DNA of 54,454 nt from an uncultured Gammaproteobacteria bacterium (GCA_964561945.1 CAZLQM010000005.1:1-54454); one strand, 5' to 3'; counted from the stretch's first letter, positions 18,658 to 32,197 are shown. The notes: generated by a model not told the origin, from the sequence alone. Numbers and translations are program-made.

Positions 18658-21399
18658 TTAGTATGTTGGAGTGATGGTGTAAACGATATGTCCTGAGTAT
18701 GTATCTGTAGGCTGGAGAACATTCACTTCCAGAGCGTAAACAACGTCTGCCGTGGTGCCTGAATCAACACCAGATGAATACATAACAGGTCGCGGTGTGG
18801 TACTGAGTGGTCCAAATTTGGCCGATCCGCTACTCCAACCACTGACCCTAGTGTCTGATGTCCCTGCTCCGATCCAGCCAGTATTTACATTGCTAACTGT
18901 TCCATTGGGGGTACTCCAGGTAACAGGTGTAGTCCAACTAGCACCAAGTGCCGCAAATGGATCGATGAAATTAGAAGGATCTAAACCCTGAATTACAGAA
19001 GTACTTAACATATTGAGGAGGACGGTATACCCGCTAACTGAGTTAGTGGAGACGGATAATCGCTGAGCTATGTATTTTGGGGTGCCAACTGATATTGAAC
19101 CGAAGGGTAAAGATGTGATGGTACTAGATACAGAGGTGTTAATTCCATTAGCTAATGTGTTGGCCCCAATGGCTGAAATGGAGAAAGTAAGCGATGGGTC
19201 TTCCCAAGATCCAAATGTGCTATCTGATTGAAATCTGCCTGATTGATCACTTCCCCAGTATGCAATATTAGGAGCAAGGGAAAAATTAGACAGTCCCGTC
19301 AAACTGGCCCTAGTTGGGCCATCAATTTTGAGGCGCAAGGTGCCTGATGCTGAAGTGTAGTCTAATTCGATGAAATAAGATTGATTAGCCAAAATTGCTC
19401 CCGAAGCATCATAAGTGGTTGTAGAAACACTACCGTTACGAACGGTTCGTAAAGTTATGGTGTTGGCACTACTCCAATATAGTTGGATCGTGTCATTAGC
19501 AGATCTGTACCATTCTCCAATGTAAACATTAGTACTACTGTCAGATTGAAATGAAAGAGCAGAAGCTGCTGAATGTCTGGGTGTGTATTTAAATTTTATA
19601 TTACCAGCGGAAACTCCAAGTTGAGTTATCGGTTGGGTTACCGTATCCATACCATCGATTCGAATGCCTGAGGTTTCGGTAGAACTGGAGAGGGAAGCTG
19701 GAGTAACAGTAAGAGAGACATTGGTAAGGGGGATGAAATATAGATCATCAAGGTAGAAAGTTTGGCTATTGTTACTTAAATACTGGGCAGAGACAGAGCT
19801 ACTGGACGCTCTTACAACTCCGTGCAAGGGCTCCCAGTTATTAGTGCTTGAGGTAGTCAAAATCTGGGTTCCATCTTGAAGAGACTGATTAAGATCTACG
19901 CTATCGGTTACAGGATAGACATACCCTCCTAACGCGTAGAAATTGTCTGCAGTAGTAGTTATAGATCTGGTAACTCCCTCATCAAGTGCGTCGGTAATTA
20001 CTTCCCAACTATTACTGCCACTTCGAGATTGGGTAGTGGATTGAGATGAGCTAGTGGGAGTACCGACACTTGAAGGGGGTGTGCCACCTTCATAGGATGG
20101 GTCATTGTAGGAATTAGTTAAAAGCTCTACTGAGTGCCAGCTGCAAGTTCCACTTGAGGCAGTATTTAGTAAATTTACTCGCAAGGTTTTGGATCCTGAC
20201 CCCGTGATCTGGCCTGTAACTATTAATGCTGAAGGAGAAGTTCGACTAGTATTATTACTGCCGTCTATGTATCCAATGGAAAGGGATGAAGTTTGGTCGT
20301 ATAGTTGTAGTCTCGGAATGCAGTTAGCATCAGCGTGAACTATGGCTCGAGCGAGAAAATCGTCGCCTCCGTTAACTGTTACATCTTGATAGTAACCTTC
20401 ATTGGAAGCACTTGAAGTCCAGTAATAGCCTGATGCAAAAAGCTGATTTGGAGCACTCAACGAACCGTTGGCAGATGGCGTACCGATTTGGCTCCAATTA
20501 GTCCAAGCTGTAGCGTTGGTGAGGAACCCATTTGATAATAAATTATTTGCATGAGGATAAGTCCAAGCGTATCCTGTGCCACTAGACAATGAACCAACGT
20601 TTCCGTCTAAAGGTATTGCCATTACTACGTCAAAGGAACCTGTCACATTTGTTGGGTCACGACCACTACCGCCATTGTAAATTAAATTGATTTCATCACC
20701 GTTACCAATATTTATCCCGTTATTCCCATCGTATAAAACTCGACGATAAATAGTAAATCCTTCGATCAACCCAGAGATAGCTTCATCAGCACCATCGCTG
20801 CCTAAATAGAAACTAGTTGACGGCTGAGTGCTAGTTGGTTGGGTTGTAATACCACAACTATGAGAATCATTAATTGATAAACATGAATAGTTACTGCCGT
20901 TGATAAAATTATTAGTATCGTATCTGAGAACTATTGAATAAGAAGAGCCTGCACTAATAACTGAATCAATGGTCATTGACTGACCTCCCACTGTGATTGA
21001 ATATCTATCGTTAGCATAGTCGTAACCTAAGTTATAGTTCGAGTCTGCGTACCAAAGATAATTAATACCCGATGATAAATTGTTGGAACTATACTCCGGC
21101 GTCCAGAACAAAACGATTGATCCTTGGGATGAGTCAAATGTTTGATAGAAACTTCCTCCGATTTGGGAGCCGCGACCATAAGCTATAGAGTCATCGGTTA
21201 ATGTGTCTTGGTTGCTGGGTTCACCTTGGAGAAATACTCCAACAGCGAATGGACCTTGGCTGATTCTTTTGGCAATTGATGGAGTGAAAGTAAGGTCGCT
21301 AGGATTGATGGTTAATGAAGAAGCATGAATTGTTGACGTGAAGGAAATATTAAGAATGAAAAATACAATTAAAATCAGAATTTTGTGGGGATTTGCCAT
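18658..21399 (-). CDS. Large secreted Ser/Thr-rich beta-sandwich protein (LamG/CBM-like modules) with C-terminal domain shared with two paralogs
   Basis: Signal peptide (..IHA), LamG-like segments (GSIVLFWTP, FYLGSD, IAYWGSD), CBM-like FYLDD; C-terminal DPSLTF...VYTITPTY. Confidence 0.8.
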   Translation of the reverse strand: MANPHKILILIVFFILNISFTSTIHASSLTINPSDLTFTPSIAKRISQGPFAVGVFLQGEPSNQDTLTDDSIAYGRGSQIGGSFYQTFDSSQGSIVLFWTPEYSSNNLSSGINYLWYADSNYNLGYDYANDRYSITVGGQSMTIDSVISAGSSYSIVLRYDTNNFINGSNYSCLSINDSHSCGITTQPTSTQPSTSFYLGSDGADEAISGLIEGFTIYRRVLYDGNNGINIGNGDEINLIYNGGSGRDPTNVTGSFDVVMAIPLDGNVGSLSSGTGYAWTYPHANNLLSNGFLTNATAWTNWSQIGTPSANGSLSAPNQLFASGYYWTSSASNEGYYQDVTVNGGDDFLARAIVHADANCIPRLQLYDQTSSLSIGYIDGSNNTSRTSPSALIVTGQITGSGSKTLRVNLLNTASSGTCSWHSVELLTNSYNDPSYEGGTPPSSVGTPTSSSQSTTQSRSGSNSWEVITDALDEGVTRSITTTADNFYALGGYVYPVTDSVDLNQSLQDGTQILTTSSTNNWEPLHGVVRASSSSVSAQYLSNNSQTFYLDDLYFIPLTNVSLTVTPASLSSSTETSGIRIDGMDTVTQPITQLGVSAGNIKFKYTPRHSAASALSFQSDSSTNVYIGEWYRSANDTIQLYWSSANTITLRTVRNGSVSTTTYDASGAILANQSYFIELDYTSASGTLRLKIDGPTRASLTGLSNFSLAPNIAYWGSDQSGRFQSDSTFGSWEDPSLTFSISAIGANTLANGINTSVSSTITSLPFGSISVGTPKYIAQRLSVSTNSVSGYTVLLNMLSTSVIQGLDPSNFIDPFAALGASWTTPVTWSTPNGTVSNVNTGWIGAGTSDTRVSGWSSGSAKFGPLSTTPRPVMYSSGVDSGTTADVVYALEVNVLQPTDTYSGHIVYTITPTY

Positions 21400-21472
21400 A
21401 TTAAATCTCAGGAGTGAGATGATTCCATATTACCAGTTTTTGAGTCTATTAAGCTATCTTTGAATGAAGAAA

Positions 21473-31282: not shown

Positions 31283-31324
31283 ATATTTATATTAAGCATA
31301 CAAGAAAGATCATAAAATAAGATA

Positions 31325-32197
31325 CTAATCGGCATCTGACCACAAAGCTCGACCTGCTTGAACTTCTTGAATTTTCTTATCAATTAATTTGCGACGTTCT
31401 TTGTTATATTGCAGTTGCAAATCTTTGAGCAGATCTTTGGCGTTATCTGTAGCTGTTTGCATGGCAATCATTTGTGAGGCATAGAGAGCGAGCTTAGATT
31501 CGAGAATTTGTTGACGGAAAAGAGCATAACGCAACTTGGCTGAAACATTATCGATTAATGTATCAATCGCTGGTTCAAAGATAAACTTGGTTTTGGCCTT
31601 AAGATCAGTTGATTGATCAACGGCATTTTCGGGAACTGTCAACTCCTCGAAAACAATTTCACGAACAATTGGATTGATATATTTGGAATAAACTAAATTG
31701 ATTTTGTCATAACGAGGAAACATCCGAATTAGAGATTGAAGATGTTTGATTTCTAAAAATTCAGGGATGTTATAAGGAAAAAACTTGACTCCATATTTGC
31801 GAACTAGTCTACGAAAATATTCCTGACCTTTGGTACCAAGTACAAAGTAATCTGCTTCTTTGTTTTGGGGAACAATAGTGTCAAGCTTTTTGAAAATCTC
31901 ATTATTGTATGAACCACACAAACCTTGATTTGAAGTTATTACAATAATGGCGTGTTTATTAGTCGACATTTTGTAATTGCGAATTACTTTTTGCATTTCT
32001 TGCTGAGTGGCTCGGCGTTGTTCAACACGAAGCTCACGCAAAATAGCAGTTGTTTCATCCACGAACCTACGACTCTTGAGCACGACCTTGCGCAAAGACG
32101 CCATGCGAGAAGCTGAAATTTGTTGTAAGCTGTTGGCAAAATCACCTACAGATTTAACGACGGTTTTTTGCTCTTTGATTTCATTGATCTTGGCCAT
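31325..32197 (-). CDS. atpG: F-type ATPase subunit gamma
   Basis: MAKINEIK, ITSNQGLCGSYN, FEP, MIAMQTATDNA, YNKERR...IQEV. Confidence 0.93.
   Translation of the reverse strand: MAKINEIKEQKTVVKSVGDFANSLQQISASRMASLRKVVLKSRRFVDETTAILRELRVEQRRATQQEMQKVIRNYKMSTNKHAIIVITSNQGLCGSYNNEIFKKLDTIVPQNKEADYFVLGTKGQEYFRRLVRKYGVKFFPYNIPEFLEIKHLQSLIRMFPRYDKINLVYSKYINPIVREIVFEELTVPENAVDQSTDLKAKTKFIFEPAIDTLIDNVSAKLRYALFRQQILESKLALYASQMIAMQTATDNAKDLLKDLQLQYNKERRKLIDKKIQEVQAGRALWSDAD

Follow-up and report, generated by a model that had tools for sequence, protein, structure and literature searches.

A gene cluster resembling an F-type ATP synthase operon, interleaved with genes for secreted proteins, was found at positions 18658-32197 of a DNA stretch of 54,454 nt deposited under an uncultured Gammaproteobacteria bacterium (GCA_964561945.1 CAZLQM010000005.1:1-54454). 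This whole stretch is called the window below, and coordinates are positions in it unless a contig or locus record is named. The genome that supplies the window is G000, and G001 and higher numbers denote comparison genomes. The open reading frames (ORFs) and Pfam matches gave, in the order in which the minus strand is transcribed, gamma, beta and epsilon, followed by a secreted protein of 372 amino acids (aa), a divergent 190-aa gene on the plus strand, a 682-aa protein in which immunoglobulin-like (Ig-like) domains are fused to a subunit c-like hairpin (the Ig::c fusion), b, delta, alpha, a 364-aa protein and a 913-aa protein. The features are as follows.

31325..32197, minus strand: gamma subunit, 290 aa (PF00231, E 4e-46)
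29798..31282, minus strand: beta subunit, 494 aa, catalytic motifs intact (PF00006, E 5e-69)
29510..29785, minus strand: epsilon subunit, 91 aa, beta-sandwich only (PF02823, E 1e-20)
28290..29408, minus strand: predicted Pam-type pilin, 372 aa (NF058581 CPR_Pam_pilin_C below cut-off, AlphaFold2 model, family profile)
27532..28104, plus strand: conserved divergent cytoplasmic protein, 190 aa (no family match in Pfam or NCBIfam; homologs at the same position)
25453..27501, minus strand: Ig::c fusion, 682 aa (Big_1, E 9e-9; ATP-synt_C, 25.1 bits)
25456..25674, minus strand: c-like two-helix hairpin of the fusion (45% identity to the genome's own canonical c; alignments)
24895..25413, minus strand: b-like peripheral stalk subunit, 172 aa, one N-terminal transmembrane (TM) helix (NCBIfam subunit B models, best E 1.3e-7, all below cut-off)
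24304..24888, minus strand: delta/OSCP subunit, 194 aa, full length (PF00213, E 6e-16)
22639..24291, minus strand: alpha subunit, 550 aa (PF00006, E 5e-71; PF00306)
21473..22567, minus strand: second predicted Pam-type pilin, 364 aa (NF058581, E 1.3e-5; family profile, E 2.5e-137)
18658..21399, minus strand: secreted protein, 913 aa, candidate adhesin-carrying pilus subunit (pilin family profile over residues 734-913, E 5.5e-66)
32181..35084, minus strand: two multi-pass membrane proteins, 504 and 461 aa (ORFs; crude TM count)

This gene order and the lack of a gene for subunit a had been claimed in a sequence-only reading of the window, and both were borne out by the ORFs, the Pfam matches and a search of the whole genome for the subunit families (atpB, free atpE). 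The catalytic motifs of beta and alpha, which had likewise been called intact, could be seen directly. Walker A, Walker B and the catalytic Glu are retained in the alpha3beta3 subunits, the Walker B of beta reading LLFIDN, and alpha retains GDRKTGKT and SVSRIGG. The genes of the central stalk (gamma and epsilon) and of the peripheral stalk (b and delta) are both present, b being recognised from NCBIfam matches below threshold and from its position, which is kept in all loci. The b-like protein also matched FliH weakly (E 0.009). Alignment showed that epsilon lacks the C-terminal helical domain (91 aa, compared with 153 aa for the canonical copy in the same genome), whereas delta has 194 aa compared with 107 aa for the canonical delta on contig C17. 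Beta is 50% identical to the genome's own canonical beta, and in a comparison with the PDB its score was about 520 bits against ordinary F1 betas, compared with 355 bits against the beta of the Mycoplasma mobile G1-ATPase. The window beta is thus not specifically related to the mycoplasma clade, which was represented in this comparison by type 2/G1 and by no type 3 sequence.

In the AlphaFold2 model of the fusion, a signal or TM segment (residues 15-37) is followed by five beta-sandwich domains (48-136, 146-245, 252-334, 385-471 and 476-568), with a Pro/Thr linker at 335-379, and then by a Gly linker and the c-like hairpin at 610-681, as read from the predicted secondary structure. The model was built on an alignment of five rows and reached a mean predicted local distance difference test score (pLDDT) of only 59.7. 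The ATP-synt_C family matched residues 617-658 with 25.1 bits (cut-off 24), and the last 70 residues are 45% identical to the canonical c of the same genome. Relative to that c, the hairpin has kept the Gly-rich helix 1 and the EAIGRNP loop and carries Val in place of the ion-binding Glu of helix 2. The R-N-P loop and the Gly-rich helix 1 are invariant in 11 of 11 fusion homologs, and the carboxylate column is occupied by V, I, M or L in all 11, an acidic residue being found in none. A VirB2-like pilin was rejected as an identity for the hairpin, which scores above the PF00137 cut-off, shares 45% identity with the c of its own genome and has no VirB2 or TrbC match in Pfam (E 0.01).

The fusion is a single open frame in 11 genomes with a mean column identity of 57% over its whole length, and since neither a stop nor a Met interrupts it between the last Ig-like domain and helix 1, it is taken as a true fusion. 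Its start, judging from the alignment of homologs, is probably the ATG at 27483, six codons past the GTG. Subunit c has both termini facing outward and its polar loop directed toward F1, where the loop contacts gamma and epsilon in known synthases. An N-terminal fusion would therefore place the Ig domains outside the cell.

The assembly of G000 comprises 1.10 Mb in 65 contigs and is 96% complete with an estimated contamination of 3.9%. The search for atpB (PF00119) and atpE (PF00137) that the sequence-only reading had proposed located both in a complete canonical operon on contig C17, ordered a-c-b-delta-alpha-gamma-beta-epsilon (atpBEFHAGDC) and with a Glu-containing c. In the whole-genome family search, subunit a was found on C17 only, with no atpB in the window. 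ATP-synt_C matches were limited to C17 and the fusion, and the window has no free atpE (atpI was not searched). A third set is split over two contigs (C54:1610-3592 and C38:1-4128) and consists of a short fusion, b, delta, alpha, gamma and beta. Its fusion is a secreted protein of 264 aa with a c-like hairpin from which the carboxylate is absent. Three gamma genes were also counted in both other genomes of the genus. The idea that the window might hold one half of a split ordinary synthase thus did not hold, as the canonical operon is complete on C17 and two further sets are present; because of this full operon and the third set, the genes in the window are regarded as an accessory machine.

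Some further observations concern these other sets. The third set also has a convergent gene for an 80-aa epsilon-like protein and one for a 661-aa tetratricopeptide repeat (TPR) membrane protein. The canonical delta (C17:13988-14311) has 107 aa and corresponds to the C-terminal part only, in agreement with the pattern of short delta subunits in the Candidate Phyla Radiation (CPR) noted in part of a 2026 preprint on rotary ATPase evolution. A PF00006 match on contig C53 was rejected as a fourth ATPase, since the sequence reads as Rho factor.

The operon with the Ig::c fusion was found in 12 genomes of Patescibacteria from at least three classes, so that the neighbourhood, whose conservation across Patescibacteria had been proposed as a check, proved to be kept. 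Orthologs of gamma, 60-94% identical, occur in 4 other genomes of the 301 in the class (5 of 301 with G000), and the next best match is 32% identical. The class tallies on gamma include the unpublished genome G068. In a sample of the phylum this type of beta was present in 4 of 401 genomes, three of them in other families and classes with 68-70% identity, and metagenomes held at least 120 cluster representatives that are 67-100% identical to it. A scan of one genome per GTDB species gave 13 loci, of which 7 have full-length fusions; the other 6 match in the Ig region only (29-33%) and belong to unrelated phyla. Named relatives are Beckwithbacteria and 'Microgenomates'. Several records with the CPR operon (L041, L042, L044-L046) are titled 'uncultured Gammaproteobacteria' or 'Pseudomonadales', which looks like mislabelling of the bins.

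The order fusion-b-delta-alpha-gamma-beta-epsilon is kept in the 8 loci that are sufficiently long (G003, G167 as far as beta, G302, G303, G304, G575, G604 and, partially, G648). The window and G001 display a rearranged form, with gamma-beta-epsilon-pilin on the other side. Subunit a is absent from all fetched loci; in the genomes checked (G000, G003, G167, G575, G604 and G302, 6 of 6) its gene was located only in a canonical operon apart from them. The four gamma genes of G003 include that of a second complete operon, which also encodes its own a and c and has long-branch alpha and beta (G003:C1:70000-81000). A quick maximum-likelihood tree with 48 rows (25 beta sequences and 23 of alpha), all from Patescibacteria, placed this type in one clade each for alpha and beta, with a Shimodaira-Hasegawa-like approximate likelihood ratio test (SH-aLRT) support of 99, and the canonical sequences in a separate clade (97-99). 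The short-fusion type fell outside both. Of the alpha/beta phylogeny suggested earlier, a distinct clade is thus seen in this quick tree, and the mycoplasma enzymes were compared for beta by PDB score only.

The main-text sections of a preprint (Troman et al. 2026, bioRxiv 10.64898/2026.03.03.709456) describe PamA and PamB of Mycosynbacter amalyticus as pilins of the donor-strand-exchange type. The family model NF058581 covers, over its whole length, the C-terminal 150 residues of the 372-aa protein (E 1.8e-7, 31.4 bits) and of the 364-aa protein (E 1.3e-5, 25.3 bits), both scores lying below the 55-bit cut-off. The two proteins are 67% identical. [quoted passage not shown] Relatives numbered 152, and in an alignment of 48 of the 120 listed the near-invariant columns gather in the linker strand, VDPTFTF. 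A profile of the window pilin family matches above-cut-off Pam pilins of other classes with E 1e-32 or weaker; in the whole genome it finds 3 ORFs, all at this locus. A search with the pilin sequence gave 0 matches in the PDB, and a Foldseek search of the PDB with the model returned only generic two-domain Ig adhesins and a CFA/I pilin (TM-scores 0.2-0.26) and no Pam entry. From the family matches and the model we assign the proteins to the Pam pilin family, which supports the earlier proposal that the paralogs build a filament.

The 913-aa protein had been called an adhesin-like paralog. It is paralogous to the pilins over residues 734-913, the linker strand and C-terminal domain, and the remainder is not. 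Counterparts of 560-790 aa occur in G003 and G301-G305. The N-terminal head gave a lectin-like impression, for which support was not found. The mature N-terminus of the Ig::c fusion (LDHFTFDDFT) might, as read from the alignments, act as a donor strand in the manner of the pilin linker VDPTFTF.

Pam operons also encode PapD-like chaperones with a membrane anchor (PamC and PamD), whereas a gene for such a chaperone was not found in the window. A WxLIP/DUF916-like protein with a C-terminal TM helix, possibly a chaperone of the PamC/D type, is encoded on contig C1 of G000 and beside the Ig-fusion operon in G575. It belongs to a cluster (C1:7144-11764) with a dockerin-bearing Ig protein and a cohesin-like protein, and this cluster adjoins the Ig-fusion operon in G575 and G604 (L067:16153-18956; L066:18369-19595) and is on another contig in G000.

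Pilin genes are present somewhere in all 12 genomes with the Ig-fusion operon. In 7 of these (G000, G001, G003, G302, G604, G575 and G648) the distance from the operon is no more than about 7 kb, and in G604, G575 and G648, which belong to other classes, a pilin gene directly follows epsilon. In G301, G303 and G304 the pilins are on other contigs, and the contigs of G002 and G167 are too short to judge the linkage. A further 12 metagenome contigs appear to be common to the lists of pilin and beta matches, as paired by equal size, which is a proxy only. Pam-like pilins occur in 105 of the 301 class genomes and this ATPase in 5 of 301, and many of the pilin holders are without any gamma. In G604 two tandem genes of the beta-lactamase family, mutually 65% identical, are located between two pilin genes (L066:6159-8130).

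The a-less type with the short fusion (264 aa) is widespread, being present in 100 of the 301 class genomes. Bona fide Pam pilins above the cut-off were detected in 24 of 301 genomes of the phylum, a tally that includes genome G452; no single statement here depends on that genome or on G068. From 13 of these 24 genomes, 14 regions were inspected. In 4 of the 13 (G512, G409, G430 and G388; L068, L071, L073 and L074) an a-less set was found within 10 kb of the Pam pilins, consisting of short fusion, b, delta, alpha, gamma, beta and epsilon, and in each of the four genomes a canonical operon that includes subunit a is located at another place. No ATPase gene was seen within 10 kb in the other 9. 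The main-text sections of the preprint (bioRxiv 10.64898/2026.03.03.709456) report that ATP synthase genes, and also a 'tail fibre-like' gene, occur together with pam operons, take the ATP synthase genes as a link to ATP production, and state that no retraction machinery was found. These sections give no account of a lost subunit a, a dead c or a fusion. Most likely, the short-fusion a-less sets are the 'ATP synthase components' that the preprint places beside the pam operon.

We read the locus as an accessory F-type ATPase that is incompetent for ion transport and may act as an ATP-driven rotary or torsional motor on a surface structure of stalks and pili, a proposal for which and against which we find the case evenly balanced. 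The rotor and stator parts are kept, and the channel and the ion site are lost, which argues for ATP-driven torque on a c-like ring over energy conversion; the recurring linkage to pilins points to a Pam-type filament as what this stalk ring mounts or acts upon. Beta would hydrolyse ATP, and gamma and epsilon would turn or twist a ring of fused c subunits from which a crown or shaft of Ig stalks projects through the cell envelope. Some 10 stalks, each of five Ig domains and a Pro/Thr linker, might be long enough to span the wall. The stalk ring would be the base or partner of a filament made of the Pam-type pilins and the 913-aa adhesin-like subunit, and the machine would rotate, wind, retract or help to mount this host-attachment filament. 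Formation of the ring, its rotation and its contact with the pilus are what we infer from the genes present. A more specific version is offered with considerable reserve and is doubtful as it stands: the F-type motor would itself be the base of the appendage, ATP spinning or winding the c ring whose Ig stalks carry the Pam pili, and the short fusion, present in a third of Microgenomatia genomes and next to bona fide pam operons in other classes, would be the common form of this arrangement.

Several observations weigh against such a motor. The b stalk, with subunit a missing, has no known membrane partner to resist torque, so that it is not evident how rotation would be productive. Confidence in the fusion model is low (pLDDT 59.7), and the window is without a PapD-like chaperone. 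There is no pilin gene on the available contig in 3 of the 12 genomes (G301, G303 and G304). The far greater number of genomes with pilins than with this ATPase, many of them without any gamma, means that pili do not need the ATPase, and a link between ATPase and pili is proposed from gene content and synteny.

The torque postulated above might also be dispensed with. A non-rotary F1-like engine could export or assemble the stalk or the pilins, or drive their turnover or a switch in their conformation, as has been guessed for the mycoplasma type 3 enzyme or for FliI-type export ATPases, the hairpin being mainly an oligomerising membrane anchor, and a b without stator partner, an epsilon without regulatory helices and the weak FliH match of the b-like protein (E 0.009) would all fit such an engine. 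A precedent is the mycoplasma F1-like X0, which according to the part of the report considered here works with surface proteins by an unknown mechanism (PMC12994834). We nevertheless hold this to be rather unlikely, since every rotor and stator part but a has been kept, including a full-length delta and the R-N-P loop, all of which would be dispensable, and since the mycoplasma enzymes of that kind are described as having lost b and delta. An explanation that leaves the pilins out altogether is that the ATPase, together with its Ig stalk, makes up a complete surface device of its own, for instance a mount for an adhesin or a shaft across the wall, with the pilins as mere neighbours in an island of surface-protein genes. 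The much wider distribution of the pilins, and the 3 of 12 genomes whose available contig has none, point in that direction; however, the linkage recurs in at least four separate lineages and with two ATPase subtypes, and in the window pilin and ATPase genes are interleaved on one strand, so that the explanation appears improbable.

Far less credit is given to the two remaining possibilities. A second synthase or ion pump of the ordinary kind, with subunit a borrowed from the canonical operon, would account for alpha and beta being typical F-type sequences, and a gene for subunit a does exist in the genome. It is very hard to reconcile with a helix 2 of c that has no acidic residue in 11 of 11 homologs, with some 570 extracellular residues on each c, and with the absence of subunit a from each locus examined. 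The metagenome-assembled genome, in its 65 contigs with 3.9% estimated contamination, could in principle present a decaying or mis-assembled relic, whether the fusion ORF was mis-called, the binning produced an artefact or the genes are pseudogenes. We give this hardly any weight: the fusion is a single open frame in 11 genomes with a mean column identity of 57% and no Met before helix 1, both other genomes of the genus have three gamma genes, and the catalytic motifs are intact.

The 190-aa gene, previously taken for an orphan, is not one: it is divergent beside the fusion in 8 of 9 Microgenomatia loci, with homologs of 28-80% identity in this position in G001, G002, G003, G167, G302, G303 and G304. 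The protein has no family match in Pfam or NCBIfam, an Atlas search gave nothing usable, and a role in regulation or assembly is possible. The two genes diverge from starts that are 30-48 bp apart in the window and 32-81 bp in four other genomes, a short gap that hints at shared regulation.

The genes for the 504-aa and 461-aa membrane proteins are directly upstream of gamma, the first overlapping the gamma start. The two are possibly accessory, glycosyltransferase-like proteins whose membership in the locus is uncertain. Epsilon is followed in G304 by a relative that shares 28% identity with the 461-aa protein, and in G003, G302 and G303 by membrane proteins of the TPR/TMEM260-like kind; these recurring TPR/TMEM260-like proteins might glycosylate the stalk or the pilins. 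The 913-, 504-, 461- and 190-aa proteins had no Pfam match even with E allowed as high as 5. Immediately downstream of the locus are a secreted protein of the CAP/YkwD family with an N-terminal TM helix (16967-17812) and a 169-aa secreted protein (17847-18356), the latter kept beside the locus in G001 and with a 34%-identical relative in a Beckwithbacteria locus. DNA of the locus was found in 3 sequencing runs of one study, a bioreactor metagenome, for which no RNA runs are listed.

Rotary ATPases are textbook energy converters, and the only established repurposed F1 machines are, to our knowledge, those of mycoplasmas. The type 3 F1-like X0 of the MIB-MIP system (Beven 2012, PMC3369863; Berlureau 2026, PMC12994834), as far as the parts of these reports considered here describe it, has like the window an extra alpha, beta, gamma and epsilon beside a canonical operon and no a, a genome-reduced, host-dependent bacterium as its owner and a surface protein as partner. 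One of its proteins, which combines a signal peptide and a large domain with two C-terminal TM helices, together with a small cytoplasmic protein, parallels the fusion and the 190-aa gene. In the same descriptions, however, neither b nor delta nor c can be recognised in the type 3 cluster, whose membrane part is a 12-TM 'Protein 1', whereas b and delta are present in the window and the conserved core contains no 12-TM gene; the type 3 partner is an antibody protease system and that of the window is the pilins. The type 2 or G1-ATPase of M. mobile, the gliding motor (PDB 9io5), is likened to the window as an ATPase that derives from F1 and was put to mechanical use at the cell surface. It is set apart by the beta scores given above and, in the part of its description considered, by forming a chain of dimers in the cytoplasm, with neither a c ring nor a peripheral stalk. 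With the canonical F1Fo on C17 the locus shares the eight-gene logic, the c-b-delta-alpha-gamma-beta-epsilon order, the motifs and a 45% identical c hairpin. It differs in having no subunit a, a c that has lost its carboxylate and is fused to five Ig-like domains, a truncated epsilon, a full-length delta and pilin genes in or beside the operon. The repurposing in Patescibacteria would be independent of and older than that in mycoplasmas, keeping rotor and stator and discarding ion transport.

A literature search found no papers on an F1-like ATPase in Patescibacteria or Saccharibacteria, nor on a c ring with a pilus in Patescibacteria. The 2026 preprint on rotary ATPase evolution refers, in its Methods only, to 'unusual genomic neighborhoods' of CPR beta homologs. 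The sequence-only reading had proposed a candidate new system. What stands of this is that the lost a, the dead c and the fusion go unreported in the main-text sections of the Pam preprint, while ATP synthase genes beside pam, and repurposing in mycoplasmas, were already known.

The annotation 'ATP synthase' in CPR genomes overstates their energy-conserving capacity, as the short a-less type in 100 of 301 genomes illustrates. The locus puts a rotor subunit on the cell surface beside the pilins with which these episymbionts reach their hosts, and it offers a candidate answer to how Pam pili are mounted or moved and to the role of the 'ATP synthase' genes next to pam. If the more specific version given above, with the motor as base of the appendage, is true, these bacteria would possess a rotating or retractable attachment filament, a third rotary surface machine beside flagella and archaella, and the 'retraction machinery' of the Pam pili.

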